DNA of 64,000 bases from Myxococcales bacterium. Lineage in GTDB: Bacteria; Myxococcota; Myxococcia; Myxococcales; 40CM-4-68-19. Below are positions 11,478 through 55,317 of the stretch, piece by piece; positions within the stretch are counted from its first letter, which is position 1, and the number at the start of each line of letters is the position of its first letter. Where the stretch lies: assembly GCA_036488495.1 (NCBI GenBank), contig DASXHM010000276.1, positions 176 through 64,175 on the forward strand, read 5' to 3'. The notes under the pieces were generated by a model. That model was not told where the DNA came from, did not search any database, and saw only the letters and a list, made by a program, of their open reading frames with translations. A program made the position numbers and the translations under genes.

Positions 11478-11483
11478 CCGCGC

Positions 11484-11780: not shown

Positions 11781-11788
11781 GGCGGCGC

Positions 11789-15703: not shown

Positions 15704-15718
15704 GCGCCTCGTTTCGAC

Positions 15719-17089: not shown

Positions 17090-17200
17090 CGGACGCCTCC
17101 AGAGCGCCGGAATCTACGTTCCGCGCGGAGCGTCCACAAGCCTGGGGCGCGGCTGTCGACGTGGACAACCGTTGGAGTACAGTGGGTTCGAGGGGGTTCC

Positions 17201-19331: not shown

Positions 19332-19495
19332 GCCGCCCCCGCGGTTGATTCTGGTGTAGCACGAGCAAGGACATGATGCCGGTCGCGGACCGACAGGGCG
19401 CCCGCACGGTCCCTTCCTACTGCGCTAGTCGACCCCTCGACGGTTGTCGTTCGCGTCGGCAATGGCCACCCACGGCGTTGACCAGGAGATTGCGG

Positions 19496-21460: not shown

Positions 21461-21469
21461 AGGCTCGCG

Positions 21470-22735: not shown

Positions 22736-24940
22736 GTGAGACGGCCAGCCGAAGTCGCAGCCAGCGAAGCAGAGATCCGCCGCATCGTCGAGCTGTCCCA
22801 CGCGGATCCGCATTCGGTGCTCGGCATCCATCCCGACCCGACGGGCGTGGTGATCCGCACCTATCGCCCGGACGCCACCTCGGTGACGGTCCTGCCCTCG
22901 TTCGGCGGCGAAGTGCCGGCCCGGCACCGTTTCGGAGGAGTGTGGGAGGCGCGGCTCAACGCCAAGCCGGAGGCCTTCGAATACCTGCTGCGGGTCGAAT
23001 ATCCGGGCGGAGCGCGCTTCACCTTCCGCGATCCGTACGCCTTCTTGCCCACCTTCGGCGATCTGGATCTGCACCTCGTCTCCGAGGGGCGCCACGAGCG
23101 CATCTGGGAGCGGATGGGCGCGCACCCGCGGCATCACCAGGGACACTTCGGCACCTCTTTCGCGGTCTGGGCCCCTTCGGCGAAATCAGTGTCGGTGGTG
23201 GGCGACTTCAACTCCTGGGACGGGCGGCTGCACCAGATGCGCAGCATCGGCTCGACCGGGGTGTGGGAGCTGTTCGTCCCCGAGGTCTCGGCGGGCGCGC
23301 GCTACAAGTACGAAGTGCGTCCGCAGACCGGGCCGCATCTGTTGAAAGCCGATCCGTACGCCTTCCGCACCGAGACGCCGCCGGCCACCGCATCGGTCGT
23401 GCACGACCTCGACCGTTACCTCTGGAAAGACGGCGCCTGGATGGCAGCCCGGCGGGACAAGGATCCAATCCGCCAGCCGGTTTCGATCTACGAGGTGCAC
23501 CTCAGCTCCTGGCGGCGGGTCATCGAGGAAGGAAATCGCCCGCTCTCCTGGAGGGAGGCGGGGGCGCAGCTCGCGGCGTACGTGAAGCAGATGGGCTTCA
23601 CCCACGTCGAGCTGCTGCCGGTCGCCGAGCACCCCTTCGGCGGATCGTGGGGCTATCAGGTGACGGGATATTTTTCGCCCACCGCGCGCCACGGCCACCC
23701 CGACGATTTCAAGGCCTTGGTGGACGAGCTCCACCAGAACGGCATCGGGGTGATCGTCGACTGGGTGCCGGCCCATTTCCCCAAGGACGCGCACGCCCTC
23801 GCCCGCTTCGACGGCACCGCGCTGTACGAGCACGAGGATCCGCGGATGGGAGCGCATCCCGACTGGGGCACGCTGGTCTTCAATTACGGCCGCAACGAAG
23901 TGCGCAACTTCCTGCTCGCCTCGGCGCTGTTCTGGTTCGACCAGTATCACGTCGACGGGCTGCGGGTGGACGCGGTCGCGAGCATGCTTTACCGCGATTA
24001 CTCGCGCAAACCCGGCGAATGGATTCCCAACAAGTACGGTGGAAGGGAAAACGAAGAAGCGATCGCCTTTCTCAAGGAGGTCAACGAGCGCGTCCGCGAT
24101 CTGCACCCGGGCGCGCTGATGATCGCCGAGGAATCGACCGCCTTTCCCAAGGTCACCCACCGCGCCCGCGACGGAGGGCTCTCCTTCCATTACAAGTGGA
24201 GCCTGGGCTGGATGCACGACACGCTGGAGTACTTCTCGGCGAATCCGGTGTATCGGAAGTGGCACCACCACAAATTGACCTTCACCATGGTCTACGTCTT
24301 CAGCGAGAACTTCCTTCTCCCGCTCTCGCACGACGAGGTGGTGCACGGCAAAGGCTCGCTCCTCGGCAAGATGCCCGGCGACGACTGGCAGCAGTTCGCA
24401 AACCTGCGCGCGCTGTACGGCTTCATGTGGGCGCACCCGGGAAAGAAGCTGCTCTTCATGGGCGGCGAATTCGCGCAGCGCAAAGAATGGAATCACGACG
24501 TCAGCCTGGACTGGCACCTGCTCGACGCCGGACGGCACGCGGGGGTCAATACGCTCGTGAAAGACCTCAACCGGCACCTCGTCAGCGAGCCGGCGCTGTT
24601 CGAGCTGGATGGCGAAGGCAGCGGATTCGAATGGCTGCAGCCCGATTCCGCGGACGTGAACGTCTATGCCTTCGTCCGCTGGTCGCAGGACCGCAAACAG
24701 CACCTGGTCTGCGTCGCGAACCTGTCGCCCGCGCCGCGGAGCGGCTATCGCATCGGCATGCCCAAGGCGGGACGTTACCTGGAGCTGCTCAATTCGGATG
24801 CCGACGTGTACGGCGGATCGGGAACCGGCAACGGCGGCGCGGTGATGGCGGAGGCCGTGCCGGCGGACCGGCAGCCCAACTCGGCGGTGATGACCCTGCC
24901 GCCGCTCGCGGTCCTCTGGTTCAAGCCCGAAGGTGACTGA
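22736..24940 (+). CDS. glgB: 1,4-alpha-glucan branching enzyme
   Basis: GH13 branching-enzyme motifs: DWVPAHFP, GLRVDAVASMLY, IAEESTAFP, PLSHDEVVHGK. The GTG directly abuts the mak stop. Confidence 0.9.
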   Translation: MRRPAEVAASEAEIRRIVELSHADPHSVLGIHPDPTGVVIRTYRPDATSVTVLPSFGGEVPARHRFGGVWEARLNAKPEAFEYLLRVEYPGGARFTFRDPYAFLPTFGDLDLHLVSEGRHERIWERMGAHPRHHQGHFGTSFAVWAPSAKSVSVVGDFNSWDGRLHQMRSIGSTGVWELFVPEVSAGARYKYEVRPQTGPHLLKADPYAFRTETPPATASVVHDLDRYLWKDGAWMAARRDKDPIRQPVSIYEVHLSSWRRVIEEGNRPLSWREAGAQLAAYVKQMGFTHVELLPVAEHPFGGSWGYQVTGYFSPTARHGHPDDFKALVDELHQNGIGVIVDWVPAHFPKDAHALARFDGTALYEHEDPRMGAHPDWGTLVFNYGRNEVRNFLLASALFWFDQYHVDGLRVDAVASMLYRDYSRKPGEWIPNKYGGRENEEAIAFLKEVNERVRDLHPGALMIAEESTAFPKVTHRARDGGLSFHYKWSLGWMHDTLEYFSANPVYRKWHHHKLTFTMVYVFSENFLLPLSHDEVVHGKGSLLGKMPGDDWQQFANLRALYGFMWAHPGKKLLFMGGEFAQRKEWNHDVSLDWHLLDAGRHAGVNTLVKDLNRHLVSEPALFELDGEGSGFEWLQPDSADVNVYAFVRWSQDRKQHLVCVANLSPAPRSGYRIGMPKAGRYLELLNSDADVYGGSGTGNGGAVMAEAVPADRQPNSAVMTLPPLAVLWFKPEGD

Positions 24941-26528
24941 CGCGGTCCGCGAGGCGCTGTCGGCGCTGGGCATCCGCCGGTTGCTCCTGGCGGTGCACGA
25001 CGCCTCGCTGCCCGCCGGCCCCGACGACTGCGGCCACGGCGCCCCGCTGTCCGACGGCGGGCGCGCGTTCTTGCGCTTTGCCGCGCGGCTCGGATTCCAC
25101 GGGATTCAATTCGGGCCGCAAGGCGAGACGACTGCCTACGATCCGTCTCCCTATGATTCGACGCTGTTCTCGCGCAACCCGCTTTCGATCGGCCTGTTGC
25201 GCATGGTGGAGGACGGCCTCCTCCCGGCGGCGGCGTTCGCGGACATCTGCAGCGGAGCGCCGGGGCCAGAGCGCGCGGATCATGGGTTCGCCGAAAAGGC
25301 GGTCGCGCGCGCGATGCAGGCTGCCTTTCGGGAATTGCCCGAGCTGGGCGAGTTCGTCGCCCGCAACGGCGACTGGATCGGGCGCTATCGCTTGTCGCGC
25401 GAGCAGCAGTTCGCGCAATGGGTGGCGCACGATCAGCACCGGCGTTTCGCCGAGCTTGCGCATGAGCTCGGGCTGGTCCTCGCAGGGGATCTGCAGATCG
25501 GCGTCTCCGTCCGCGACGCGGCCGCGTTTTCCGAGCTGCTCCACCCGAGCCTTTTGCTCGGTGCTCCGCCGAGCAGGACGAACCCGGAGGGCCAGCCGTG
25601 GGGCTATCGCATCCTCGATCCGGATTCGCCTTTGGCCGGCGTCGCCTTCCAGCGGGCGCGCGCCGAAAAGCTCCTCTCCGAGTTCGACCTGCTCCGCGTC
25701 GACCATCCGCACGGCCTGATCGACCCCTGGGTGTACACGGGCGACGTCCGGGAGGGATCGCGGCTGTCGTCGTCACCCGACGTGTTTCCACAGTGGGCAA
25801 TTGCGCGCGAGGATCAGATCGATCGGACGCAGCCGCGGCACGCCGACGGTTGGGTGCGCGCGCTCGAGCCTGCGCAAGTCGATCGATATGCGCTGACCTT
25901 CGATGCCGTGGTCGCCGCCGCGGGGTCTGCTGATCGACTCATCGTCGAGATCCTCAGCACCCAACCCTACCCGGTCCGGCGCGTGCTCGAGCGCCACGGC
26001 CTCGGCCAGTTTCGCGTCACGCAGAAGGCCGATCCGCGCAACCATGGCGACGTCTACCGCTCGGCGACGGCGCGCCCGCAGGATTGGATCGCGGTGGGCA
26101 CGCACGATACGGAGCCCATCTGGCGGGTCACCCGGCGCTGGGTCGAAACAGGCGGCGGTGCGGCACACGCAGAATATCTCGGCGAGCGGCTGCGCATCGA
26201 CCCCCGGCCGCTGGCGCAGGATGCCTACGCCCTTGCGCGCGCGCAGCTCGCCGACCTCTTCGTCGGGCCCGCGCAGCAGGTGTTGATCTTCTTTCCCGAT
26301 CTCTTGGGAATGGCCGACGTCTACAACCGGCCGGGGGTAGTGAGCCCGGAGAATTGGACGCTGCGCGTGCCGGCGCGCTTCGAAAGCGAGTACCGGCAGG
26401 CGGTGGCCGAAGGGCGCGCGCTGCACCTGCCCTCAGCGCTCGCGTCGGCCATCCGCGCGCGCGGCCCTTCGTTCGCGGCGGCGCACACGGCGCTCCTGGC
26501 ACGGCTGGAAGCGGCAGCGCTACCGTAG
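24933..26528 (+). CDS. GH77-like 4-alpha-glucanotransferase (amylomaltase-like)
   Basis: The GTG overlaps the glgB 3' end by 8 nt. GH77-like segments are present: DPSPYDSTLFSRNPLSI, LLRVDHPHGLIDPW, VGTHDTEP, FFPDLLGM...PGVVSPENWTLRVP. The protein is divergent, so this is a family-level call only. Confidence 0.65.
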   Translation: MTDAVREALSALGIRRLLLAVHDASLPAGPDDCGHGAPLSDGGRAFLRFAARLGFHGIQFGPQGETTAYDPSPYDSTLFSRNPLSIGLLRMVEDGLLPAAAFADICSGAPGPERADHGFAEKAVARAMQAAFRELPELGEFVARNGDWIGRYRLSREQQFAQWVAHDQHRRFAELAHELGLVLAGDLQIGVSVRDAAAFSELLHPSLLLGAPPSRTNPEGQPWGYRILDPDSPLAGVAFQRARAEKLLSEFDLLRVDHPHGLIDPWVYTGDVREGSRLSSSPDVFPQWAIAREDQIDRTQPRHADGWVRALEPAQVDRYALTFDAVVAAAGSADRLIVEILSTQPYPVRRVLERHGLGQFRVTQKADPRNHGDVYRSATARPQDWIAVGTHDTEPIWRVTRRWVETGGGAAHAEYLGERLRIDPRPLAQDAYALARAQLADLFVGPAQQVLIFFPDLLGMADVYNRPGVVSPENWTLRVPARFESEYRQAVAEGRALHLPSALASAIRARGPSFAAAHTALLARLEAAALP

Positions 26529-29899: not shown

Positions 29900-30301
29900 T
29901 CACTTCGGGATCGCGCCCTGTCGCAAGAAATCGCGGGCGTCGATCGTTTCGAGCGCCCTCCGCGATTTGAAGACGCGCTGCTCGCTCGCCGCCGGCGAAA
30001 CGGCTTCCGAGTCCGCAGGCACGCCCGGCTCCGAGAGAACCGTCTCGACGAGCTCAGGACCGTCCGGAACGGGGTGCGCCGCAGGTCCGCGCGGAGCCTC
30101 CTGCACCGCCTCGCCCGGATTCGGCGGGATTTGTTCATCCACCGCCTGCCCGATTGGTCCGGCCAAGGGCGCCATGACCGGAGCCAACGCGGGATCCACA
30201 CCGAGCAGCAAGAAAGCGATCACCGCGACGCTGATGGTAGCCGTGGCGACGATCCTGCGGTTCCGCAACTTCTCCGGATCGAGCTTCGTCAACGCGTACA
30301 T
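29900..30301 (-). CDS. Hypothetical single-pass membrane protein with Pro-rich exposed region (133 aa)
   Basis: One TM helix (IVATATISVAVIAFLLLGV). It starts 54 nt downstream of the peroxidase stop on the same strand. Confidence 0.45.
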   Translation of the reverse strand: MYALTKLDPEKLRNRRIVATATISVAVIAFLLLGVDPALAPVMAPLAGPIGQAVDEQIPPNPGEAVQEAPRGPAAHPVPDGPELVETVLSEPGVPADSEAVSPAASEQRVFKSRRALETIDARDFLRQGAIPK

Positions 30302-30355: not shown

Positions 30356-33300
30356 TCACTGCACCGTGACCGTCACCGGCGCCGAGTCGGTGACGTTCCC
30401 CGCTGCGTCGCGAACGCGGGCGAGGAGCGTGTGGGCGCCGATCCCGCCGGTCGTGCTCGTGTTCCAGCGGACGCTGTACGGCACGCTCTTGTCCTCGGCG
30501 CCGAGCGGAGCGCCGTCGAGGAGGAATTGCACGCCGACCACCCCGACGTTGTCGGCGGCATTCGCCGAGACGGTGATGATCTTCGTGACGATGTCGCCAG
30601 TGACCGGCGCCGCGATCGAAACCGTGGGCGGAATCGGGTCGTTCACCACCTGCACCGGGACACCCGCGGCCGTGACCGTATTCCCCGCCGCGTCGCGCCC
30701 TCGCGCGGACAAAACATGCGTACCGTCGAGGACCGTCGTCGTGTTCCACGACACGCTGTACGGGTCAGTCGTGTCTTCGGCTTTGAGCGCGCTGCCGTTG
30801 AGCAGGAATTGCACGCCGGCGAGCAGGTTCGGCGAGGATGCGGCGACGCTGACGGTTCCGCTCAGGGAGACCCCCACTGCAGGCGACGTGACCGACAGCG
30901 CGAGGGGGCCGGGGGCGCCGCTCGAGACCACCAGGTTCACCGGAAACGCGAGGAATTCGAAGGTCCCCGCGGCCGGATCCGGACCGATCACCTTGCCTGG
31001 CGCCACCGTCGTGCTGGGACTGAAGTTGACGGCGCCGACCGTCAAACCGGCCGCGGTGATCCGATTGGCGGCCACCGTCTGCGTCACGCCGGCCAGGTTG
31101 CTGGGAATGGCCGCGACCTTGGCTCCGGGCGCCGCGATGGACCCGTCCGCGAACTGCAGCACCTCGATGTTCAAGAGGGTGTCGGTGCCGTCGTTGAGGA
31201 GTGCTTTCTTGGGCGGCCTCGCGTGGACCACCGTGACCGATCCATTCGGGTTCAAGGTGATGTCGTACTGAGCGCGATTGTTCGAGAACACCGCGGTGTC
31301 CACGGCGGGCGGCCCCAGGCGAATGGTCCGTTGGATGCGGATGTTTCCCGGGTTGAGGCGCTGCGGGTCGGCAAATACGTCGTCGGTGAGCCCGCGCGGG
31401 TCCCAGACCGCCTTGACGGTTCCGTCGTTGAGGGTGGCGATCAGTTGGACGTCCAACCAGCGATCGCCGTCGATCAGGTCGTTGCCGGCCTTGCCTTCGA
31501 TGACGTCGCGCCCGCCGCCGCCGAGCAGGATGTTGCCGGCCTTCCAGGGCAGCGTGATGTTGAACCCTGAAGGCCCGACCAGCTCGGTCAAGCCGGCGAT
31601 CTTCGCGGCGCCCGCGACGGTCAGCTCCATGCCGGGCAGGTTCTGGCGTTCGGGCGGAGCGGTGGGGTCGTCCACGCGGTCGTCGCCGCGGATGTGGTCA
31701 TCGAGGTCCCAGCCGGACGCGCCGTCCACGAGGCGGTACTTGTTGCGAAGGTCGTTGAAGTTCAAGAGGACGCCGGGGACGGCGAGGAGGTTCAGCTCGA
31801 TGTCGGCCGGGACCGGCCAACCGCGCTGGGTGATCCAATCGAAGCCGTAATCGCCGAAGAATTTGTTCGTCCCTTCGGACTGCAGGAAAATGTCGTCGCC
31901 GCCCTCGCCGAAGTGGTTGTCCTGGCCGGGGCCGCCGCCGAGGACGTCGTCGCCGCCTTCCTTGTCGAGCCCGGCGAGCAGGTCGAAGACGTTGCCGTTG
32001 TCGCCGAAGATGCCGCCGTCGTGGCCATCGCCGTCGTAGATCCAGTCGTCGCCCGTGCCGCCGAAAATGCCCTCGCTGCGCATGGCGCCGTCGATGATGA
32101 CGTCGTTGCCGGGACCGCCGAAGTACTCGACGCCGTCGTCACCGCCGACCATGAAGTCGTTGCCCTCGCCGCCGATGAGGATGTCTCCGCCGAAGCCCGG
32201 TCCGCTGGAGAGAGCGTCGTTGCCGGGGCCGCCCTTGAGGATGTCGTCGCCGTTGCCTCCGAAGAGGATGTCGTCGCCCTCGCCGCCGATGAGGATGTCG
32301 TTGCCTTCGGCGCCGTCCATCCGATCGTTGCCCTCGTTGCCCCACATGGTGTCGTCGCCGACGTCGCCACGGAAACGATCGCCGCCAGGGCCGCCGTTGA
32401 AGAGGACGTTCTTGCCGGAGTGCAGCGGATCGAAGAACTGCAGCGTGCCGTCGGAGAGCGCGAGCAGCGAGATGCCGGTTGCCGGATCGAGCACGCCGGG
32501 CGTGCTGGTCGAATCGAACACGTAATCGGCCGTCTCGAAGATGTTGCCCATGGTCGCTCCGACCGTGGTGTTGCGCCGGGCCAGCTCTGCGAGCGAGTTC
32601 CCTTCCAGCGAGAAGCGCAGGTTCAGGCCGTCGGTGCGCTGCAGGTAATAGAAGCGATCGCCGTTCTGCAGGTCTTCCAGTTGGTGCTCGAAGACGAAGT
32701 TGAAGGTGGTGCCGAGCAAGCCGCCGAACACGGACGGCTTCTCGGCCATGCCGCCGACCCAGAAGTCGACGGTGTCGAGGCCGCTCGTGGCCGACGGCGC
32801 CGACAGGTTCGCGTCATTCGCGGCAATCAACGCCGCCGCGGCGGCGCGCTTGCCCACGACGGTGGTCGCCGAGGTCACGTTCGGATGCGTCGAGTACGCC
32901 GCGACGAAATTGACGAACGATTCCGGATGCCGGAGGCCGAGCTTGAATTCCGACCAATTGGCGTACGGCCGCAGACCCGAATCCTGCGTCTTGGCGAAGA
33001 ACTGCTGCCTCGCCACGTTCAGGGGGGGAATTCCTTCGCTGCGGCCGCGCGCGATGTTGATGGCGGGAAGATCGAGCGGCAGGCCGACGAGCGAGTTTCG
33101 GACCGAGGAGGTGACGAACTCGTCGAGCTCGTTTCCCACCTGTCCGACGGAACCGCGGATCATCGAGCCGGCAGCGGCTGCGGCGGTGAGCGGCGTCGCG
33201 GTCCCGCCTTCGTTGTACGCGGCAGGATTGAGGAACGCATTGAGGAGGCGCAGGTCGTTGGGCGAGCCGTCGGTGTTGATCCGTGCCAGCATCTCCGGAA

Positions 33301-35044
33301 GCATGGAATGACCGAGCCGATAGACGGTGTGCGCGAACTCGGCCGAAATCGCCGCGTCGATGGAGGTGATGCCTCCCAGGAATGGGTTGATGAGCGGTTG
33401 CACCTTGCGCGCGAACTCTTCGAAGACCAGGTGCTGGTACTCCATCTCGGTCACGAACCGCGCCGCCTGGAAGAGTCGCTCGCCGTAGGCCCAGCCGGAG
33501 CCGGAGTCGACCGCGTTCCATTTCGCGATTTCGGCGGGCGTCAAGAGCTGGTTCACGAGCTTGTCGATCTGGTGGACCAGCCGGTTGTGCTCGGCGTGGA
33601 AGAGATTGTGCACCGTCGTCAACGCGATGTTCTCGTTGCCGCGGCCGTCACCGGTGACGAAGTGCGCATCGAGCACGTCGCCGTCATACGTGCCGGCGGG
33701 AGTTTTGCAGGTGGTGCTGCGGAAGTCGCAATAGACGCCGTCGCGGATTCCGGTCAGGCCCGGGTTCGGGATCGCATTGTGCGCAATGTCGTTGAGAAAC
33801 GCATGGCCGGTCCGGAACGCGTCGGCGGGAATGATGACGCCGGTGCCACCGTTCGCGGCAGGATTCCCTTCCACCAGCACGTTGCCCGGACGGATGAGCT
33901 GCGGGAAGCCGCGCGGGCCCGGCTTGAAATGGCCGTAGGGGTCGGTGAGGATCAGCGGGACGTCGAAGACGTCCTGGTCGGTGAGCCGGATGCCGAGCTT
34001 CGCCTGGGCCTGCGCCTTGACCTCCGCCCAGTTGCCGATGTTGCAGATGTCGTCGCCCGCAATCCCGGTGCCGCGCGGCGAGCAGTGCCCACCGTCCAAG
34101 ACCTTGCCGTCGGGAACCGGCCTGCCGGTCGCGAGGCTGTACTGGCGCAGGAAGACCTGGTGCGAGGGGTGCGAGGTATAGGTCTGGTTCTGATCCACCC
34201 AGGGCGTGGTCGTGTTCATGGTGTCCTGGATGTCGTCCGCGGTCCCGAGAATACCGTCCGGGCCGGGCTGGTTCTGCCCGCGCGCCATCACCATGAAGTT
34301 CGTCGGGCTGCCGGGGACGAACAGCGGGTCATCCGGTTGCAAGGGCATGACCACCGTTCCGCTCCCACCCTTGGTCACGAGGTCGAGACCGTGGTCGAAG
34401 AACTGGCCGAAGAAGACGAACATCAAATTGAAGGGCGCGGAGAGGCCGAAGTCGGGCGTGATGTTGGGGATGAAGAGCGCGCCGGAGAAAGGATCGGGCG
34501 GCGACGGATCCGCGCAGACGAAATTGCCCGCGCCGCACGGATGAGCGGCGACTGCCACGGCTGCGGGGTTGGTCGCGGACTGGTCGACGATCAGGTTGCT
34601 GATGGTGCGCGGGCGCGAGTCGATCACATTGGTGTCGGTCTTGGTCGCGTAGGAAGTGCCTGCTTCTGCCGGACGGAACGACGGCGACGTCAGCCGGGGA
34701 AAGAGGCGATCGGCCGCGCCGAACAGGTGCTGATCGGGAATCTGCACCAGGTTGTTGAACGTCCCGTCGACGGTGCGCAGGCCGACTGGAAACTGCGGGT
34801 CGGGGACGCCATTCAGGTTGACCTGGTTCGGGCCCGGTCCGAGCAGCGCGCCGCCCGCCGCGTGGAACTGCGCGACTTCGATTTGGTGGAAGATGAACCG
34901 CAGATCGCCGGCGTCGATGGAAAAGCCATTTCCGACCGGCGCGGTCTGCGCGTGGGCCGAGCTCGCCGGGTAGAAGACGAAGAGCAGCACCCGGCCGACC
35001 ACGAGCGCACTGCGCCACCGGCCATTCATTCGCATTCGATTCAT
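30356..35044 (-). CDS. Secreted multidomain haem peroxidase (1562 aa): peroxidase-cyclooxygenase fold, RTX Ca-binding repeats, PASTA-like module and two Ig-like domains
   Basis: ATG at 35044 with GGGGG upstream and signal peptide MNRMRMNGRWRSALVVGRVLLFVFYPASSAHA. Catalytic motifs are FGQFFDHGLD (distal Gln/Asp/His), GDGRGNE (Arg, Glu), LFHAEHNRL and YRLGHS (proximal His). GGxGxD nonapeptides span aa 883-1055. The C-terminal 186 aa form two similar repeats (GVQFLL(N/D)G...DPYSVSWNT / VPYSVRWNT...AAGN). Confidence 0.85.
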   Translation of the reverse strand: MNRMRMNGRWRSALVVGRVLLFVFYPASSAHAQTAPVGNGFSIDAGDLRFIFHQIEVAQFHAAGGALLGPGPNQVNLNGVPDPQFPVGLRTVDGTFNNLVQIPDQHLFGAADRLFPRLTSPSFRPAEAGTSYATKTDTNVIDSRPRTISNLIVDQSATNPAAVAVAAHPCGAGNFVCADPSPPDPFSGALFIPNITPDFGLSAPFNLMFVFFGQFFDHGLDLVTKGGSGTVVMPLQPDDPLFVPGSPTNFMVMARGQNQPGPDGILGTADDIQDTMNTTTPWVDQNQTYTSHPSHQVFLRQYSLATGRPVPDGKVLDGGHCSPRGTGIAGDDICNIGNWAEVKAQAQAKLGIRLTDQDVFDVPLILTDPYGHFKPGPRGFPQLIRPGNVLVEGNPAANGGTGVIIPADAFRTGHAFLNDIAHNAIPNPGLTGIRDGVYCDFRSTTCKTPAGTYDGDVLDAHFVTGDGRGNENIALTTVHNLFHAEHNRLVHQIDKLVNQLLTPAEIAKWNAVDSGSGWAYGERLFQAARFVTEMEYQHLVFEEFARKVQPLINPFLGGITSIDAAISAEFAHTVYRLGHSMLPEMLARINTDGSPNDLRLLNAFLNPAAYNEGGTATPLTAAAAAGSMIRGSVGQVGNELDEFVTSSVRNSLVGLPLDLPAINIARGRSEGIPPLNVARQQFFAKTQDSGLRPYANWSEFKLGLRHPESFVNFVAAYSTHPNVTSATTVVGKRAAAAALIAANDANLSAPSATSGLDTVDFWVGGMAEKPSVFGGLLGTTFNFVFEHQLEDLQNGDRFYYLQRTDGLNLRFSLEGNSLAELARRNTTVGATMGNIFETADYVFDSTSTPGVLDPATGISLLALSDGTLQFFDPLHSGKNVLFNGGPGGDRFRGDVGDDTMWGNEGNDRMDGAEGNDILIGGEGDDILFGGNGDDILKGGPGNDALSSGPGFGGDILIGGEGNDFMVGGDDGVEYFGGPGNDVIIDGAMRSEGIFGGTGDDWIYDGDGHDGGIFGDNGNVFDLLAGLDKEGGDDVLGGGPGQDNHFGEGGDDIFLQSEGTNKFFGDYGFDWITQRGWPVPADIELNLLAVPGVLLNFNDLRNKYRLVDGASGWDLDDHIRGDDRVDDPTAPPERQNLPGMELTVAGAAKIAGLTELVGPSGFNITLPWKAGNILLGGGGRDVIEGKAGNDLIDGDRWLDVQLIATLNDGTVKAVWDPRGLTDDVFADPQRLNPGNIRIQRTIRLGPPAVDTAVFSNNRAQYDITLNPNGSVTVVHARPPKKALLNDGTDTLLNIEVLQFADGSIAAPGAKVAAIPSNLAGVTQTVAANRITAAGLTVGAVNFSPSTTVAPGKVIGPDPAAGTFEFLAFPVNLVVSSGAPGPLALSVTSPAVGVSLSGTVSVAASSPNLLAGVQFLLNGSALKAEDTTDPYSVSWNTTTVLDGTHVLSARGRDAAGNTVTAAGVPVQVVNDPIPPTVSIAAPVTGDIVTKIITVSANAADNVGVVGVQFLLDGAPLGAEDKSVPYSVRWNTSTTGGIGAHTLLARVRDAAGNVTDSAPVTVTVQ

Positions 35045-35150: not shown

Positions 35151-35166
35151 TGCATCGCCGATGCCA
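35151..35166 (-). promoter_or_regulatory. Candidate sigma-54 (-24/-12) promoter for the peroxidase gene
   Basis: The minus strand reads TGGCAT-CGGCG-ATGCA against the consensus TGGCAC-N5-TTGCA, with exact GG-N10-GC spacing. It lies about 105 nt upstream of the ATG at 35044 and directly downstream of a sigma-54 activator gene. Confidence 0.55.
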
Positions 35167-35333: not shown

Positions 35334-37112
35334 TTAGTGCGTGCCCGTGGCTGCGGGCCGGGCCGGGCCAGGCTCCGTCTTCTCGTGCGCGAGGCCATAG
35401 CGCCGGATCTTGCTGTACAGAGTGCCTTTGACGATGCCGAGAATCTGCGCGGCGGCGGCGACGTTGCCTTGCGCCTTCTCCAGCGCGCGGGCACAGGCGC
35501 GGCGCTCGGCGCTCTCCAAGGAGAACCCGCCCGACGGCGTGAGCAAGCGCAGGGCGCGCTCGATCGGATCGGGGATGGTGTCGAGCTCCGACTTCCCTGG
35601 CGGCAAGAGCGCGATGTTCCCTTCGAGCGTGTTGACGAGCTCGCGGACGTTCCCGGGCCAAGGGTAGCGCTCGAAAGCGGCCAGGACCTCCGGCGCAATC
35701 CGAATGGTCCGCCACGACCTCTTGCGCTCCGCCGCGAGCTGCGCCTCGACCAACAGACGGATATCGCCGGCCCGCTCGCGCAGAGGTGGCAACTGGATGT
35801 CCACCACCCGCAGCCGGTGGAGCAGATCGAGCCGGAACCGCCCGGCGGCCACTTCGATCTCGAGATCGCGGTTGGTGCTGGCGATGACGCGAGCGTTGAA
35901 CGCCTTGGCGGCGGACCCGCCGAGCCGGTGCACCACCTTCTCCTGCAGCACGCGCAAGAGCTTCGTCTGCATGTCGAGCGGCAACTCGCCGATCTCGTCC
36001 AAGAGGAGCGTGCCGTTCCGCGCCAGCTCGAACTTTCCGGCGCGGCCCTGCGCCGATGCGCCGGTGAACGCGCCCTCCTCGTAGCCGAAGAGCTCGCTCT
36101 CGAGAAGCTCCCCGGGAATGGCGGAGACGTTCACGCCGACGAATGGTTCGGCGGCGCGCCCAGACGCATTGTGGATGGCCTGCGCGAGGATCTCCTTCCC
36201 GGTGCCGGTCTCGCCGGTGATCAGGACGGGAAGGTTCAGGTCGGCGACGCGGTGCGCGGTCTCGCGAACCGCACGGATCAGCGGCGACTCGCCGATCAGA
36301 TCGTGGATGTGGTAGCGGGCGCGCGGATGCCCTGCAGCGCGCCCGTGGCGGGACGTGGCGGGCGTCAGCAGGACCGCCGGAGGCGTCTCCGTCGCGTCCT
36401 TCGCGCGGTGCGCGATCACGGCTCCCGCGGCAGGGCTGAGCGCGCGAATGATTCCCTCGAGCGCGAGCACCGCATCCGCGACTGCGCCGGCGAGCGCCGC
36501 TTCGGCAGCCTGCGTCTCGCCGTTCAGCTCCGCCCGCGCAAATGCGACCGCGGACATGAACGCGAACACCTCGAGCTCGCCCAGCTCACGGCGGGTAAAG
36601 GTCCGGCCCGCAGCCTGCTCCAGGACGATGAAGAGACGGAGCGGTGCCCGGCGAGCAATCGAAACGACCGCAACCGCACCGTCGCCGAAGGGCCCGAGCC
36701 GCGCTGCCGGATCGTCCTCGCCGCAGGAAGGCGCGCGAGGCTGGACGAGCGTACGTAGATACGCTTCCACGACGGGATGGACCTGACCTTCGGCGCAAGG
36801 ATGCGCGCTCTCGCCGGAGGTGCTTTCGCGGTCCTGCCGGGCGAGCACGAATGCTCCACGGTCGGAAGACGCGTCTACCAATCGGGCGGTGTCGGCGCTG
36901 CAAATGCCGAGGCTGAGGCGGACGACGGCAGCCGAGACGGATTCTTTGTCGGTCGCGTCGGCCAATTCCCGGCACGCAATGGCGAGCCCCTCGCTGCGGC
37001 GTGCTTCCGCGGCCTCGGACGCGTCGAACGATTGCGGGAACCTCCCGCCCTGCGACGTTCCCTGCATGGCCCGCCTCCGGCCTCCGGACAAGCAATGCAA
37101 ATCATTGAACAA
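35334..37112 (-). CDS. Sigma-54-dependent transcriptional activator (GAF-like sensor, AAA+ domain, Fis-type HTH); TTG at 37112 or ATG at 37067
   Basis: Walker A GETGTGKE, the sigma-54 contact loop ESELFGYEEGAFTGA, Walker B LLLDEIGELP, RFRLDLLHRL, and a C-terminal HTH AAAQILGIVKGTLYSKIRRYGL. There is no receiver domain. Confidence 0.85.
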   Translation of the reverse strand: MFNDLHCLSGGRRRAMQGTSQGGRFPQSFDASEAAEARRSEGLAIACRELADATDKESVSAAVVRLSLGICSADTARLVDASSDRGAFVLARQDRESTSGESAHPCAEGQVHPVVEAYLRTLVQPRAPSCGEDDPAARLGPFGDGAVAVVSIARRAPLRLFIVLEQAAGRTFTRRELGELEVFAFMSAVAFARAELNGETQAAEAALAGAVADAVLALEGIIRALSPAAGAVIAHRAKDATETPPAVLLTPATSRHGRAAGHPRARYHIHDLIGESPLIRAVRETAHRVADLNLPVLITGETGTGKEILAQAIHNASGRAAEPFVGVNVSAIPGELLESELFGYEEGAFTGASAQGRAGKFELARNGTLLLDEIGELPLDMQTKLLRVLQEKVVHRLGGSAAKAFNARVIASTNRDLEIEVAAGRFRLDLLHRLRVVDIQLPPLRERAGDIRLLVEAQLAAERKRSWRTIRIAPEVLAAFERYPWPGNVRELVNTLEGNIALLPPGKSELDTIPDPIERALRLLTPSGGFSLESAERRACARALEKAQGNVAAAAQILGIVKGTLYSKIRRYGLAHEKTEPGPARPAATGTH

Positions 37113-37192: not shown

Positions 37193-37873
37193 TCACCGCG
37201 GGGTCAGCCCCCGCGTCACCGCCGGCCTCGCCAGGAACGCCTGCAGCGCGCGCCCCACGTGCGCGTACTCGTCGAAGTGCACGAGCTCGCGCGCGCCGTA
37301 GAAACCGACCAGGTTGTTGACCCACGGGAAGATGGCGATGTCGGCGATGGAGTAATCGTCCACCATCCATTCGTGCTGGGAAAGGTGGCCGTCCAGGACC
37401 TTCAAGAGCCGCCGCGACTCGGCGACGTACCGGTCGCGCGGGCGCTTGTCCTCGAAATCCTTTCCCGCGAACTTATGAAAGAAGCCGAGCTGCCCGAACA
37501 TGGGCCCGACTCCGCCCATCTGGAACATCAGCCATTGAATCGTCTCGTACCGGCGCGGCAAGAACCGGCCGCTCTTTTCCGCGAGATACAGGAGGATCGC
37601 CCCCGACTCGAAGAGCGCGAGCGGCCTGCCCTCCGGACCGTTGGGGTCGATGATGGCCGGAATCTTGTTGTTCGGATTGAGCGAAAGGAATTCGGGCGAG
37701 AACTGGTCGTTGGTGTCGAACGAGACCCGGTGCGATTCATAAGGCAGCCCAATCTCCTCCAACATGATCGACACCTTCACCCCGTTGGGCGTCGGCAGCG
37801 AATAGAGCTGCAACCGGTCGGGATGTTTGGGCGGCCACTTTTCGGTCACGCGGAACGAGGCGAGGGCATGCAT
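37193..37873 (-). CDS. Glutathione S-transferase, YghU/YfcG-like (Nu class)
   Basis: LQLYSLPTPNGVKVSIMLEE, NPNNKIPAIIDP, ESGAILLYLAEK, WLMFQMGGVGPMFGQ. ATG at 37873; the upstream part of track ORF 37193..38089 is unsupported. Confidence 0.8.
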   Translation of the reverse strand: MHALASFRVTEKWPPKHPDRLQLYSLPTPNGVKVSIMLEEIGLPYESHRVSFDTNDQFSPEFLSLNPNNKIPAIIDPNGPEGRPLALFESGAILLYLAEKSGRFLPRRYETIQWLMFQMGGVGPMFGQLGFFHKFAGKDFEDKRPRDRYVAESRRLLKVLDGHLSQHEWMVDDYSIADIAIFPWVNNLVGFYGARELVHFDEYAHVGRALQAFLARPAVTRGLTPR

Positions 37874-37976
37874 TCGGCCATCATCGAACGCCGGATCGCG
37901 GTACGCAACGTTGCCGGCCGCGGCAGCTTGGCTTTGCGACGATGGACGTGGCACGCTCGGCCGCAACGGAGGCCCA

Positions 37977-38633
37977 ATGAACCGGCTTGTCTTTGCTGTG
38001 GCGTTCGCCGTCGCTTGCGCAACCGCGCCGACCCCCGTCGCAAAGGACGGCGCCCACAATGCCGTGCGCGCACCTTCCGTGCGCTTCATCCCGCTCGACC
38101 ACGGCTACAGCCTTTCGCCGCATGGCGAGCCCGCCAAGGTGCTGGTCGACGACAAGGAGATCGCCGCCGAGCCGCCCTTCAAGGTAGTCGGCGTGGTCGA
38201 GATCGAAGGCAAGGAGACCGAGCAACTCGCGGCCTTCGTCGCCCGCGCCGAGGACGGAGGCGCGTCGGCGGGCTGCGACGTGCTGGTCGAGCGCGACGCC
38301 TTCGAGCTCGGCACGCGGGTGCAACGACCGAGCACCCCCGTCTTCAACAGCCAGATCACCCGCGGCATGCTCGGCCGGGATTGGCAGCGCAACGATCAGG
38401 TGGTCTGGCAATTCCTCTGCGGCGTGAACGGCGCGAGCGATTCCGAGCAGGCGCAGACGCTGAAGCGGGCCACCTCTCTTGCGGTCGACCTTCGCCGCAA
38501 GGAGTTGGGAAACTACGAGCCCTGCGAACCGTACACGCCGACCGGATCGCGCATCCGCAGGACGCGCGTCTGCGCCGACGATCCCGCCCATCATTCCGAG
38601 GCCGACGCGAGGAGCAGCGGTCCTTCGTACTGA
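37977..38633 (+). CDS. Hypothetical lipoprotein (218 aa)
   Basis: Signal peptide with lipobox MNRLVFAVAFAVAC. I recognise no family. Confidence 0.55.
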   Translation: MNRLVFAVAFAVACATAPTPVAKDGAHNAVRAPSVRFIPLDHGYSLSPHGEPAKVLVDDKEIAAEPPFKVVGVVEIEGKETEQLAAFVARAEDGGASAGCDVLVERDAFELGTRVQRPSTPVFNSQITRGMLGRDWQRNDQVVWQFLCGVNGASDSEQAQTLKRATSLAVDLRRKELGNYEPCEPYTPTGSRIRRTRVCADDPAHHSEADARSSGPSY

Positions 38634-39506: not shown

Positions 39507-41012
39507 TTAGTTCGGGTGCGCCTCGCCGTGTCCCGGCTTGCCCTGGCTGTGGCCCGACTGCGCGGTCGCGGCGACGCCCTGGCCGCGGGCCCAGGTGGTG
39601 ATGAGGCCGTTGATCACGCCGCCCGCCTTGGGCGAGCCGATGCCGGTGAAGGCATCCCAGCCGGCGCCGGCGCTGAAGCCCGTCACGGTAACGGCGTTGC
39701 CGTTGTCGTCGAGCTCGATGGCCGAGTTGGTGCCGCTGGTCACGTCATTGAACGCGCTGGCCGCGTTGCTCTGGCCGACCTTGTAGAGCGCGCTGTTGAC
39801 GAAGCCGAAGCTGTGGCCGGCCGCCTGGGCAGCGATGACCGTGAGGGCCGCCCACTGCGGCGAGCCGGCGCTGGTGCCACCGAACCGGAAGAAGCCCGTC
39901 GGAACGCCCGGGAAGTCCAGGTAGGTCAGGACGCCGTGAAGGATGGCCGCGTTGAAGGAGACGTCAGCCACGCCGCGCGCCTTGGCGCCGTGGAGCGTGC
40001 CCTGCTGGTACGACGGCGCATCCCAAACCGCGCTGAAGCCGCCGCCGCCCGCCTCGGTGGTGCCGAAGTTGTTCTGGAAGTCGCCGAACTGCGGGCCTTC
40101 GTTCCAGCCGATTTCGCCCTGGTACGTGCCGGCCGCCGCATGCGTGGCCGGGTTGCAGCCGAGCGAGGGGAGGCAGTAGTCAGCCGCGTGCAGCTCGGTG
40201 CCGCCGACCGAGAGGACGAGCGGGTCCGAGGCCGGCGAGGAAGTCGACTTGATCCACGAGCTGCCGTCGCACGAAGGCTGCGAGGCGCCCTGGTCGCCTG
40301 CCGAGGCGATCAGCGTGATGCCCTTCGCGGTCGCATTGGCGAACGCTTGGTGCCAAGCGGCGGTGAGATCCGGTCCGAGGCAAACGTCGGCCTCGCCGAA
40401 GCTCATCGAGATGACGTTGCCGCGGTTGTTGTTGATGGCGTCGTTGACCGCGTTGATGAGAGCGGTGTCCGAGTTGTTGGCGGCCGACTCGAGGACGATG
40501 TCCGCTCCCGGCGCAATCGCGTGCGCCCACTCGACGTCGAGCGAAATCTCCTCGGCCCAGCCGACCTGGTTCGAGTTCCCGCCGTCGAACGGCGTCAGGC
40601 CGTCCGGCGCGACGACCGTCAGGGTCGGGCCGTTGCCGGTGTTGAAGAGCGGAATCCCGTAGAAGTTGTTGAAGAAGTTCGCCTGGTTGACGATGTTCGG
40701 GTTCTGGAACGCGTCGACGATGACGATGGTCTTGCCGGTGCCGTCGAAGCCGGCCTTGATGACCTGGTCGACGCCGTAGGCGGTGCGCATCTGGAACGGA
40801 TCGTAGCACTGCCCGGTGCTGCGGCCGACCTGGCAGGAGAAGAGGCCGAAGTCGCTGCCGGTGGTCTCGAGCGTCATCGCGTTCGGGTCGTGGGCCGACC
40901 AGGGATGCACCGTATTATGAGAAACCGGTGCGGTGACATTGTTTGCGTGAGCCGGAGAACCGACGAGAGCGACCGACAGGGCGACCGCAACCGCTGCGAA
41001 AAACTTGAGCAT
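39507..41012 (-). CDS. Secreted S53 (sedolisin/kumamolisin-type) serine-carboxyl peptidase
   Basis: Signal peptide, E-x3-D motif (EEISLDVEWAHAIAPGA), GGGGFSAVWDAPSYQ, and catalytic Ser in GGTSAGSPQWAAL. Confidence 0.8.
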   Translation of the reverse strand: MLKFFAAVAVALSVALVGSPAHANNVTAPVSHNTVHPWSAHDPNAMTLETTGSDFGLFSCQVGRSTGQCYDPFQMRTAYGVDQVIKAGFDGTGKTIVIVDAFQNPNIVNQANFFNNFYGIPLFNTGNGPTLTVVAPDGLTPFDGGNSNQVGWAEEISLDVEWAHAIAPGADIVLESAANNSDTALINAVNDAINNNRGNVISMSFGEADVCLGPDLTAAWHQAFANATAKGITLIASAGDQGASQPSCDGSSWIKSTSSPASDPLVLSVGGTELHAADYCLPSLGCNPATHAAAGTYQGEIGWNEGPQFGDFQNNFGTTEAGGGGFSAVWDAPSYQQGTLHGAKARGVADVSFNAAILHGVLTYLDFPGVPTGFFRFGGTSAGSPQWAALTVIAAQAAGHSFGFVNSALYKVGQSNAASAFNDVTSGTNSAIELDDNGNAVTVTGFSAGAGWDAFTGIGSPKAGGVINGLITTWARGQGVAATAQSGHSQGKPGHGEAHPN

Positions 41013-41398
41013 TTATGAGTCCTTTTGCTTCCGCGGGGGTGGAAACTTCCGTTGTGTGGGCAACAACGGCGCGCACCCTACCCCTATTCCCCATCAATGA
41101 TCAAGATAGGTACAAATAAATCAATCTCGCTCGCCCAGCATATTGCCGGCCGAGCGGCGGACATCCTCGTCTCATCGTGCGGCGCCTGAGCGCACGTCCG
41201 CCCGAAGCACGACCAACCCGGCGGATGACGCCCATCCCGCGTCTGGTCGCCTGCGACTGCGGCGCAAGAAGCCGCCGCAGCGCCGCCGGCCGCTCACCTG
41301 CATGTCCGATTTTTGTCCTAGCGTCCGAACGCCAGGTGTCCAGACCTTTCGCAGCTGAACAGCAGCGACTGACTCATCCAGCGAAAGAAAAGGACGAC

Positions 41399-48440: not shown

Positions 48441-48913
48441 ACGAGGCCCGGCAAACGACCGCGCTGACAGTGCGACCGGTGATGGCGGCCGACCATCCGG
48501 CGTGGCTCAGATTATGGGAGGGATACAATGCCTTCTACGGCCGCGCCGGGCCGACGGCGCTCGAGCCCGCCATCATCGAATCGACCTGGCGGCGCTTTCT
48601 CGATCCGCTCGAGCCGATGCACGCGCTCGTCGCCGAACGCGGCGGAGAATTAGTCGGGCTTGCCCATTTCATCTTCCATCGCAACACGATCCTGCTCGGC
48701 GACACCTGCTACCTCCAAGACCTGTTTACCGCAGAGGCAGCGCGCGGCGCCGGCATCGGCCGCGCGCTCATCGAGGAAACGGCCCTCCGCGCGCGAGCTG
48801 CAGGGTGCGCGCGGCTGTACTGGCACACGCACGAGACGAACGCCGCGGCAATGAAGCTGTACGACCAGGTCGCGCGCAAATCGGGCTTCGTCGTCTATCG
48901 CAAGGACCTCTGA
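48437..48913 (+). CDS. GNAT-family N-acetyltransferase
   Basis: The GTG overlaps the upstream TGA. Acetyl-CoA motif LQDLFTAEAARGAGIGRALIE and YWHTHETNAAAMKLYD. Confidence 0.75.
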   Translation: MNEARQTTALTVRPVMAADHPAWLRLWEGYNAFYGRAGPTALEPAIIESTWRRFLDPLEPMHALVAERGGELVGLAHFIFHRNTILLGDTCYLQDLFTAEAARGAGIGRALIEETALRARAAGCARLYWHTHETNAAAMKLYDQVARKSGFVVYRKDL

Positions 48914-48935
48914 CCCCTCGGCAAAGGAGCGGCAC

Positions 48936-55220: not shown

Positions 55221-55317
55221 CTCGCAAGAGTAAGACGGCCCTCGCTTGTTGCAATCGGCTCCCGAGGCGCGCAGCGTGCCCCCGCGCTTGGGGACCGCGC
55301 ACTCTGGGGGTCTGTCC

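Follow-up and report, generated by a model that had tools for sequence, protein, structure and literature searches.

Introduction

Animal-type haem peroxidases of bacteria belong to the small set of enzymes that have been connected with Mn(II) oxidation in the environment and with superoxide production outside the cell. The closest described systems are long peroxicins, Family 5 of Zamocky et al., which are encoded by large open reading frames (~1600-3300 aa) and carry PERCAL-bearing insertions (PMC4420034). MopA of Erythrobacter, Aurantimonas and Pseudomonas putida GB-1 oxidizes Mn(II) and needs Ca2+ and haem for this activity (PMC6247904), PepA of P. putida KT2440 is an extracellular, Ca-binding protein with peroxidase activity after haem reconstitution (PMC3396595), and the haem peroxidases of Roseobacter AzwK-3b have been linked to superoxide-mediated Mn oxidation (PMC6247904, PMC6414704). 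Here we describe a gene of this kind at 30356..35044 on the minus strand of a 64-kb stretch of DNA (64,000 nucleotides, referred to below as the window) from a Myxococcales bacterium, contig DASXHM010000276.1. A first-pass annotation of the window had placed the product in a group whose biological roles were essentially unknown. This statement is outdated: MopA, the Roseobacter AzwK-3b enzymes and PepA have all been studied, and are 40-48% identical to the protein.

It is very likely that the gene encodes an active, exported haem peroxidase. We consider it probable, with less assurance, that this is a Ca2+-dependent enzyme of the long-peroxicin type carrying out tethered extracellular oxidation of Mn(II) and/or phenolics, while Mn(II) as the physiological substrate is a tentative proposal. 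The evidence for the enzyme itself is presented first, followed by its export, tail, genomic context and regulation, and by the alternative explanations that have to be weighed.

The gene and its family placement

30356..35044, minus strand: complete coding sequence of an exported haem peroxidase of the long-peroxicin/MopA-PepA type (open reading frame, translation, Pfam, homologues)

The open reading frame begins at an ATG (MNRMRMNGRW...) and encodes 1562 aa followed by a stop codon. The G+C content at third codon positions (GC3) is 0.88, which is usual for the genes of the window (overall G+C 67%), and no paralogue of the peroxidase was found within the 64 kb. Comparison with the 88%-identical orthologue at locus L081 gave an overall dN/dS of 0.13, with values of 0.10-0.21 for each of the mature modules (0.11 for the peroxidase domain and 0.16 for PASTA) and 0.32 for the signal peptide, which is higher than for any mature module. 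Purifying selection acts on every mature module, the PASTA and Ig domains included.

Homologues are numerous, with 3743 at E<=1e-10 and 525 loci among GTDB species representatives. The closest come from uncultured Anaeromyxobacteraceae-like metagenome-assembled genomes (MAGs; 78-88% identity), followed by Acidobacteriota/Vicinamibacterales (60-68%) and Sorangium (51%), and then, at 43-49%, by many Actinomycetota (Arthrobacter, Nocardioides, Knoellia, Cellulomonas, Cryobacterium), Chloroflexota, Rokubacteria and one Chromatiaceae MAG. In a crude neighbor-joining tree the protein falls in a clade of Sec-type proteins from Myxococcota, Acidobacteriota, Actinomycetota and other phyla. A literature search for the family in Arthrobacter, Anaeromyxobacter, Acidobacteria and Myxococcota was uninformative.

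For comparison with the named long peroxicins we used the domain sequences given in the supplement of PMC3396595. Over 817-1026 aligned residues, A5PER4, Q1YMS2-A, Q88JT6-A/B, A6FV45 and B1Y442 share 40-48% identity with the catalytic domain; the value for the Leptothrix protein is 48%, and that for the Arthrobacter protein 47%. Because this identity to named members extends over the full domain, and because the 1562-aa chain combines an enlarged peroxidase domain with one PERCAL motif and C-terminal RTX repeats, the protein fits the sequence definition of a long peroxicin of the MopA/PepA type.

The peroxidase domain

32465..34789, minus strand: animal-type haem peroxidase domain, residues ~86-860, enlarged by insertions (PF03098, PDB matches, Foldseek)
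34382..34408, minus strand: distal motif GQFFDHGLD at residue 213, with Q214, D217 and H218 (alignment to WGQFLDHDLDL of 8s6c)
33632..33652, minus strand: GDGRGNE at residue 465, with catalytic R468 and haem-ester residue E471 (alignment to GDVRSNE of 8s6c)
33305..33322, minus strand: YRLGHS at residue 575, with the proximal haem ligand H579 (alignment to 8s6c)
34790..34948, minus strand: conserved N-terminal extension, residues 33-85, with the helix DLRFIFHQIEVAQFHAAGG (model, homologues)

The PF03098 (An_peroxidase) profile search that the first-pass annotation had suggested as a check was highly significant (E = 5e-55; 187.5 bits against a cutoff of 25), the match being split into four stretches across a domain of ~775 aa, compared with a profile length of 530. 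A PDB sequence search with the catalytic part returned the cyanobacterial peroxidase 8s6c, DdPoxA (6erc), and lactoperoxidase (LPO), eosinophil peroxidase (EPO) and myeloperoxidase (MPO), and all three catalytic motifs match 8s6c residue for residue. The residue numbers assigned earlier (Q214/D217/H218, R468/E471 and H579) were exact, and all six residues are invariant in an alignment of 53 homologues. N676, the hydrogen-bond partner of H579, sits in the sequence IPPLN and is nearly so (>=90%). Two positions deserve mention: the residue following the distal histidine is Gly, where MPO and LPO have a Ca-ligand Asp, and the equivalent of MPO Met243 is N472.

This complete, invariant set of residues bears out the earlier expectation of a catalytically competent enzyme, and it includes the Asp and Glu through which mammalian enzymes form ester bonds to the haem. 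Members of the superfamily bind haem, covalently in families 1-3 and 6. A covalent haem attached through D217 and E471 is plausible. The six cysteines of the protein form three close pairs (170/177, 321/334 and 439/446), as fits an exported protein.

An AlphaFold model of residues 33-880 (mean predicted local distance difference test score (pLDDT) 76.5; predicted template modeling score (pTM) 0.78) matched only haem peroxidases in Foldseek, with a probability of 1.00 and target-normalized template modeling (TM) scores of 0.64-0.70 to 6erc, 8s6c, LPO and MPO. Of the structural check proposed earlier, the mostly helical peroxidase fold was therefore recovered, and the haem-pocket geometry was not confirmed by the model because pLDDT is low near both haem motifs; the geometry rests on sequence alignment. 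Preceding the domain, the helix of the N-terminal extension (model residues 13-30, with 10-residue blocks averaging pLDDT 88-93) is also conserved at the N-terminus of relatives of the type I secretion kind.

Calcium motifs and the conserved module

34232..34264, minus strand: PERCAL Ca motif GPDGILGTADD, residues 261-271 (exact consensus match)
31883..32407, minus strand: RTX beta-roll region, residues ~880-1054, with ~10 nonapeptides of the GGxGxD type (PF00353, motif positions)
31130..31882, minus strand: family-specific conserved module, residues 1055-1305, ending in LLNIEVLQFADGS (homologue alignment, model)

The PERCAL motif matches its consensus G-x-D-G-x-x-[GN]-[TN]-x-D-D (PMC3396595) exactly and ends six residues ahead of the N277-TTTPWVDQNQ loop, the counterpart of the distal Ca loop. 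Both this motif and the three cysteine pairs had been missed in the first-pass annotation. Its ~170 aa of GGxGxD nonapeptides were readily recovered, as a PF00353 (HemolysinCabind) match with E = 5e-17, comprising ~10 nonapeptides at 884-1046 and one more at 1175, with PDB sequence matches to the RTX blocks of CyaA and to lipase and serralysin beta-rolls. The Ca-dependence that it had proposed is supported, both by these ~10 repeats together with the PERCAL motif and by the experimental requirement for Ca2+ in homologues (PMC6247904, PMC3396595).

The ~250 aa that follow, residues 1055-1305, had been described as a region without recognizable motif. It indeed has no Pfam family; it is not motif-free, as an RTX pair lies within it at ~1171-1195. 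Pfam, NCBIfam, PDB sequence and Foldseek searches gave no named family, with a weak likeness to RTX blocks and to serralysin C-domains. The AlphaFold model of residues 1000-1385 (pLDDT 87) predicts a continuation of the beta-roll followed by a beta-sandwich, with pLDDT mostly >90 in the module. Conservation equals that of the catalytic domain: in successive blocks of 40 residues, the 114 aligned homologues are on average 54-84% identical to the query.

A search with the module returned 505 cluster representatives at E<=1e-10, and a peroxidase domain was present in the same chain in 72 of the 148 top matches examined. Most of the 25 peroxidase-less matches of at least 700 aa look N-terminally truncated, and at least one is an unrelated RTX metalloprotease. 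In the two-unit relatives P0109-P0120 (2300-2570 aa, from Alpha- and Betaproteobacteria), the first unit consists of peroxidase, RTX repeats and module, followed by a second peroxidase-plus-RTX copy. The presence of the module in the duplicated unit shows that it travels with the catalytic domain, and we treat it as a family-specific part of the peroxidase enzyme.

Export

34949..35044, minus strand: Sec-type signal peptide, residues 1-32 (Arg-rich n-region, VLLFVFYP core, ASSAHA↓QTAP site)

The signal peptide was called from its n, h and c regions, the AHA↓Q site and its conservation in homologues; it contains no twin-arginine motif. Thirteen one-unit homologues have the same layout, a 30-40-aa signal ending in A-x-A↓Q(T/A)APVG, which upholds the Sec-type signal read earlier from the sequence. 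The prediction of an exported protein is likewise sustained, by this conserved signal and by paralogues that carry a surface-sorting tail resembling MYXO-CTERM. The two-unit proteobacterial relatives (2300-2570 aa) are signal-less and begin straight at the next conserved helix.

Type I secretion genes (ABC exporter, membrane-fusion protein, TolC) were absent among the 40 open reading frames scanned in the 64-kb window, where the sole ABC system is Liv-type. Compared with a type I RTX substrate, the protein has the nonapeptide beta-roll and lacks both the signal-less N-terminus and the C-terminal secretion signal. The repeats are internal, with ~500 aa following them, including the folded PASTA and Ig domains. 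As the Sec signal is retained and the window contains no type I genes, the RTX region is best seen as an internal, Ca-dependent folding unit within a Sec substrate. The same Sec-plus-RTX design occurs in monoderm Actinomycetota as well.

The C-terminal tail

30917..31123, minus strand: PASTA module, residues ~1308-1376 (sub-cutoff Pfam match, fold, orthologues)
30650..30892, minus strand: Ig-like domain 1 (Big_7), residues ~1385-1465 (PF17957, PDB 3pdd)
30359..30628, minus strand: Ig-like domain 2 (Big_7/Big_13), residues 1473-1562 (Pfam, PDB 9kvu)

The conserved core ends at ~residue 1305, where one Chromatiaceae protein stops. Beyond this point the protein carries a module for which PF03793 (PASTA) scores 19.7 bits in the query itself, under the gathering cutoff of 23.2; orthologous tails pass the cutoff with 25.9, 54 and 86 bits, and PF03793 is carried by 81 of the 120 best homologues. 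The model superposes on PASTA-3 of PknB (3ouv) with a TM score of 0.92 and a root-mean-square deviation of 1.0 A over 67 aa (31% identity), and gives TM scores of 0.80 with 2mgv and 0.73 with 5nod, in agreement with the fold of PASTA domains, an alpha-helix and a three-stranded sheet in about 65-70 aa. PASTA domains as a class bind fragments of peptidoglycan or beta-lactams. On the evidence of the model superposition and the orthologous tails, the PASTA module is real despite its sub-cutoff score, and the 66-aa PASTA-like module of the first-pass annotation stands. So do its two Ig-like repeats, which are two copies of Big_7 (PF17957; 1.5e-22), with PDB 3pdd aligned over 1398-1557. A literature search found no paper combining a PASTA domain, a heme peroxidase and RTX repeats.

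The protein stops after the second Ig domain (...APVTVTVQ), without a membrane anchor or sorting tail, and an NCBIfam scan of the tail gave no sorting-signal model and no MYXO-CTERM (Gly-Cys, transmembrane helix, Arg-rich end). The paralogues L050 and L006 end in GCAS-GG...LALL/V...RRR, which is MYXO-CTERM-like (14.0 bits for L050 against a TIGR03382 cutoff of 15.85). As the MAG DASTGH01 holds both L050 and the close relative L001, one genome appears to encode differently targeted versions of the enzyme.

Tails vary across the clade. PASTA tails occur in Anaeromyxobacteraceae, Sorangium and Acidobacteriota, with Big_7 in the query protein; fn3, Big_5 and FG-GAP tails in Arthrobacter, Cryobacterium and Cellulomonas, the actinobacterial members having no PASTA; cadherin-like and Big_9 tails in Rokubacteria; and Ig domains of the ASH/HYDIN type in Chloroflexota. 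Judged by their domain families, all of these are of a surface- or matrix-binding type. The targeting to the surface or cell wall that had been proposed for this protein is in keeping with its PASTA and two Ig modules, which are of the binding type and under purifying selection.

Accessory genes and multicopper oxidases in relatives

29900..30301, minus strand: gene for a 133-aa single-pass membrane protein, 54 nt downstream of the peroxidase (50% identity to the 137-aa gene at L081)

Downstream of the peroxidase, Anaeromyxobacteraceae-like and Acidobacteriota loci have a same-strand cassette of three genes without a Pfam family. Their products are a predicted lipoprotein of ~205 aa (11 loci), a single-pass membrane protein of ~140 aa (8 loci) and a protein of ~505 aa (5 loci). 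Their coordinates are 12821-13444 and 13497-13910 at L081, 11946-13463 at L001 and 9858-13240 at L082. Pfam gave no match for the ~205/207-aa lipoprotein, the 133/137-aa protein or the ~505-aa protein, and the lipoprotein had no PDB match.

On two independent contigs, those of P0005 and P0031, the order is peroxidase, three cassette genes and a multicopper oxidase (MCO). A homologous MCO lies within ~0-4 kb of the peroxidase in 23 of 82 related loci, from Actinomycetota, Acidobacteriota, Myxococcota and Chromatiaceae. In Arthrobacter (L058, L077) and Cryobacterium (L067, L073) it starts 1-110 nt after the peroxidase stop codon on the same strand; other MCO-linked loci include L004, L017, L024 and L047. 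The linked MCO is closest to bilirubin oxidase and CotA, has a twin-arginine signal and carries the motif HCHN[LT]xHED[HN]xM[ML]. MCOs of this class have been implicated in Mn(II) oxidation, namely CotA (PMC3618234) and Arthrobacter boxA (bioRxiv 10.1101/2025.05.09.653071), with which a peroxidase is reported to be co-induced, and the linked Arthrobacter MCO may be a boxA-type Mn oxidase.

The window has no match to the cassette lipoprotein or the MCO anywhere in its 64 kb, and no homologue of the ~505-aa protein adjoins the peroxidase gene. The 133-aa gene is the only cassette remnant at the window copy. This absence of the partner genes means that the role of the window copy may differ, or that it needs partners encoded elsewhere.

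The remaining neighbors are not conserved beside relatives of the peroxidase. When nine of them were compared with 80 loci by tblastn, a generic AAA+ match (L001) and a distant GlgB match (26% identity, L041) were all that was found, and across these loci the GlgE/GlgB, SDF, SDR, glutathione S-transferase and S8 neighbors are not linked to the peroxidase family. The window contains an alpha-glucan cluster at 19349-26528 on the plus strand (GlgE maltosyltransferase, a Pep2-like maltokinase, the branching enzyme GlgB and the 4-alpha-glucanotransferase MalQ), near which a ROK kinase and a phosphoglucomutase lie at 14684-17113 on the minus strand. There are also two glutathione S-transferase genes (37193-38089, minus strand; 48855-49586, plus strand) and an S8 subtilase-like gene (39507-41012, minus strand), all unlinked in relatives. 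The 540-aa product of 51483-53105 on the minus strand, in which an ice-binding-like domain (PF11999, 4e-74) comes after two Big_5 Ig-like domains, is probably another secreted or surface protein. Open reading frames at 55234-56772 (512 aa) and 41177-42490 (437 aa), both on the plus strand, have gene-like codon bias and no Pfam family. The other genes of the window are of the housekeeping kind, among them MetH, MutY, aminopeptidase P, the Liv-type ABC transporter and histidine kinases.

Regulation

35334..37112, minus strand: sigma-54 enhancer-binding activator of 592 aa, immediately upstream of the peroxidase (Sigma54_activat 5e-64, AAA_lid_14, HTH_8)
35151..35166, minus strand: candidate sigma-54-type promoter TGGCATCGGCGATGCA, ~107 nt upstream of the ATG (GG and GC at consensus spacing)

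An orthologue of the activator occupies the same position at L081, with 60% identity over 610 aa; other relatives have a two-component system in its place. No sensory domain was recognized in the window activator, and the L081 orthologue has a weak PAS match. Given this arrangement, the adjacent activator likely regulates the peroxidase gene.

At L081, TGGCATTGCCGATGCA is the counterpart of the promoter candidate TGGCATCGGCGATGCA in an alignment of the orthologous intergenic regions, whose identity is otherwise 69%, and TGGCAT-N5-ATGCA (-24 GG, -12 GC) is conserved between the two copies. When the sigma-54 motif was searched for in 13, then 19, related loci, it turned up only in L081 and L027. 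Upstream of the candidate, between 35167 and 35333 on the minus strand, several blocks are conserved with L081 7660-7823 (ATAAGATGAAC-TCCTAGGACGTTTTT, CGTAAATGCGCTGGCTT, GCGCAAT-CGTTCAT and CCATCAATATCAAC), which could be binding sites for the activator or for integration host factor (IHF). A scan of the locus for sigma-70 promoters and terminators gave nothing exceeding shuffled controls.

Proposed function and alternatives

These features enable us to propose a model for the enzyme. The Sec machinery would carry the unfolded chain over the inner membrane, with cleavage of the signal after AHA32, and Ca2+ binding by the RTX beta-roll, the 1055-1305 module and the PERCAL motif would then drive folding outside the cytoplasm, where the three short-range disulfides could form. 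As export of the MopA type takes place in the unfolded state, haem must be acquired outside the cytoplasm, and in our model haem b would be loaded after export, with H579 as its ligand and possible ester links via D217 and E471. Q214, H218 and R468 would support the oxidation of small reductants outside the cell; by analogy with the characterized sister-clade enzymes, these are most likely Mn(II), giving Mn(III), and/or compounds of phenolic or humic nature. The PASTA module and both Ig domains would hold the enzyme on a glycan surface, for instance peptidoglycan or matrix, thereby keeping oxidation local, and transcription is probably sigma-54-dependent under the adjacent activator. The indirect evidence, namely the homology to MopA and the linkage of relatives from several phyla to an MCO of the CotA/BoxA type, supports the oxidation of Mn(II) or phenolics better than any other chemistry.

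Several observations weigh against this proposal. The neighbor-joining tree places all experimentally studied enzymes in a proteobacterial sister clade, apart from that of the query, and the chemistry of MopA is itself unsettled, as Erythrobacter MopA-hp needs NAD+ and O2, not H2O2 (PMC6247904). Relatives are accompanied by an MCO, a ~205-aa lipoprotein and a ~505-aa protein, and the window copy lacks all three. In the structural model, pLDDT falls below 50 at residues 219-223 and 552-576, beside the distal and proximal histidines. The Sec signal takes a diderm protein to the periplasm only, so that outer-membrane passage is assumed. Finally, the sigma-54 motif is not above chance, with 14 occurrences in the window against 23.5 expected (consensus with <=2 mismatches), and the promoter motif is conserved in only one orthologous locus (L081); we have rejected it as an independent statistical signal and retain it as a synteny-supported candidate.

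The alternative that survives best, although we think it unlikely, is an extracellular manager of reactive oxygen species of the AzwK-3b type, which would produce superoxide from a reductant and O2 and remove H2O2 for signaling or protection, with Mn oxidation as a side effect. The 45% identity to AzwK-3b A6FV45 and the literature summarized in PMC6247904 and PMC6414704 speak for it, a stand-alone gene without an MCO fits a metal-independent role, and the nearby glutathione S-transferase genes lend weak support. However, a source of extracellular reductant is not evident, this reading accounts neither for the tethering modules nor for the MCO linkage across the family, and the superoxide route is itself disputed.

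It is improbable that the enzyme is a generator of halogenating, antimicrobial oxidants, converting H2O2 into hypohalous acids or hypothiocyanite and targeted by its PASTA module to the peptidoglycan of other bacteria, as an analogue of myeloperoxidase in predation or defense. The Asp and Glu haem-ester residues, which raise the redox potential in halogenating enzymes, are kept here; MopA and PepA, neither of them a known halogenase, have the same residues, and the MPO Met243 position is occupied by N472. The closest solved structures include halide- and thiocyanate-oxidizing enzymes, and the PASTA fold and a host lineage within Myxococcota would suit such a weapon. Nevertheless, the family is common in non-predatory phyla, its actinobacterial members have fn3, Big_5 or FG-GAP domains instead of PASTA, and relatives are linked to an MCO, not to an H2O2 source, toxin or immunity genes. 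This MCO linkage, the strongest signal in the gene neighborhoods of relatives, favors metal or phenol oxidation over halogenation. The roles in predation, sporulation and the spore coat suggested by the first-pass annotation fare no better, as family members occur widely in Acidobacteriota, Actinomycetota, Chloroflexota and Chromatiaceae that neither prey nor sporulate; we set the spore-coat and predation readings aside on this taxonomic distribution. Its further suggestion of a cross-linking enzyme is unsupported.

A more specific and equally doubtful version of the tethering idea is that the PASTA-Ig tail docks the peroxidase on peptidoglycan, either of Gram-positive neighbors or of the cell's own envelope, so that Mn(III) or hypohalite is made at the wall. 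If true, the protein would be an oxidative weapon or a wall-modifying enzyme, and would represent a use of PASTA outside penicillin-binding proteins and Ser/Thr kinases, as well as a case of Sec export with RTX folding that dispenses with type I secretion.

There is only a slim chance, slighter than for either of the two previous suggestions, that the enzyme remains in the periplasm, its PASTA module bound to the cell's own sacculus, and protects or modifies the envelope. The Sec signal is accompanied by no recognizable outer-membrane export or sorting tag, the PASTA fold is present, and we infer that periplasmic Ca2+ would allow the RTX repeats to fold. Conversely, paralogues in the same MAGs carry MYXO-CTERM-like surface-sorting tails, the relatives from monoderms can only be extracellular, secreted and surface proteins are where Ig, cadherin, fn3 and FG-GAP tails are typically found, and characterized relatives occur in the secretome. 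Lastly, a decaying or non-catalytic paralogue, heading toward a pseudogene or serving as an adhesin only, might be suspected from the loss of the ~205-aa, ~505-aa and MCO genes beside the window copy, but it is scarcely credible for an unbroken 4.7-kb frame with genome-typical GC3, all catalytic residues, a conserved dedicated regulator and promoter, and the low dN/dS against the L081 orthologue (0.11 for the peroxidase domain, 0.13 overall) on which we rejected the pseudogene reading.

Significance

The family is already known. What appears to be new here is a variant from the Sec-type clade that carries a PASTA-Ig tail, stands without its partners and is probably regulated by sigma-54. To our knowledge, all experimental work so far has been carried out on proteobacterial, signal-less proteins. 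The gene stands for a large sister clade, common in soil Acidobacteriota, Myxococcota and Actinomycetota, whose marks are a Sec signal, RTX repeats serving as an internal folding unit, swappable binding tails and, often, an adjacent MCO of the bilirubin-oxidase/CotA type. If this clade oxidizes Mn(II) or phenolics, the list of likely soil Mn oxidizers becomes longer, and the peroxidase-MCO pair of culturable Arthrobacter would offer a tractable system for studying the cooperation of both enzyme classes. The window copy itself is of more modest value, as a well-preserved, separately regulated variant without partners; the stronger lead is the cassette of peroxidase, MCO and unknown genes, which is found in relatives and not in the window.

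Comparison with known systems

The MopA proteins of Erythrobacter sp. SD-21 (A5PER4), Aurantimonas manganoxydans SI85-9A1 (Q1YMS2) and P. putida GB-1 (B0KJL7) resemble the window protein in their enlarged domain with the same catalytic residues, PERCAL insertions and hemolysin-type Ca repeats following the domain. Identity is 40% to the Erythrobacter protein and 46% to the N-domain of the Aurantimonas protein, over 800-1000 aa, and a single catalytic unit is common to the query and Erythrobacter MopA. Unlike MopA, the query has an N-terminal Sec signal, where the two-unit proteobacterial relatives have none, in line with their presumed type I secretion, and a C-terminal tail of PASTA and two Big_7 domains, and it falls in a separate neighbor-joining clade. 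It contains one PERCAL motif, whereas Erythrobacter MopA contains three and each PepA domain five. In its strict sense the name MopA is defined by Mn(II) oxidation.

PepA (PP_2561, Q88JT6) is similarly close, with 46% and 45% identity between the query and its two peroxidase domains, and both proteins have PERCAL, RTX repeats and the conserved post-RTX module. PepA, however, is a protein of 3619 aa with two catalytic units and 10 PERCAL sites, a PASTA/Ig tail is absent from its published description, and its role is in the rhizosphere and root colonization. The peroxidases of Roseobacter sp. AzwK-3b (A6FV45, A6FKA5) are likewise secreted, show 45% identity and have an identical PERCAL motif, GPDGILGTADD. 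They differ in their proposed action through superoxide and, as alphaproteobacterial proteins, in their position in the sister clade of characterized enzymes, and a PASTA/Ig tail has not been described for them.

The single-domain Arthrobacter peroxidases B8HDW8 and A0JUB7, which appear in the 2012 PERCAL paper, belong to the same clade as the query and show 47% identity. They share with it a one-unit catalytic core, RTX repeats and the conserved module. In contrast to the query, their tails consist of fn3, Big_5 and FG-GAP domains, and their gene is directly followed by an MCO of the bilirubin-oxidase type, none being present at the window copy.

More distant enzymes, namely 8s6c, DdPoxA (6erc) and the mammalian LPO and MPO, have the fold, the catalytic residues and the haem-ester Asp and Glu in common with the window protein. 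At 15-20% identity and ~500-600 aa, they are without RTX, PERCAL, PASTA or Ig elements, and carry a Ca-ligand Asp beside the distal His where the query has Gly. Peroxidasin has leucine-rich repeat (LRR), Ig-C2 and vWF-C accessory domains. Although it has no homology to the query beyond the catalytic domain, it too is a multidomain secreted peroxidase in which Ig-type modules flank that domain, and as such it provides a functional analogy for tethered, local oxidation.

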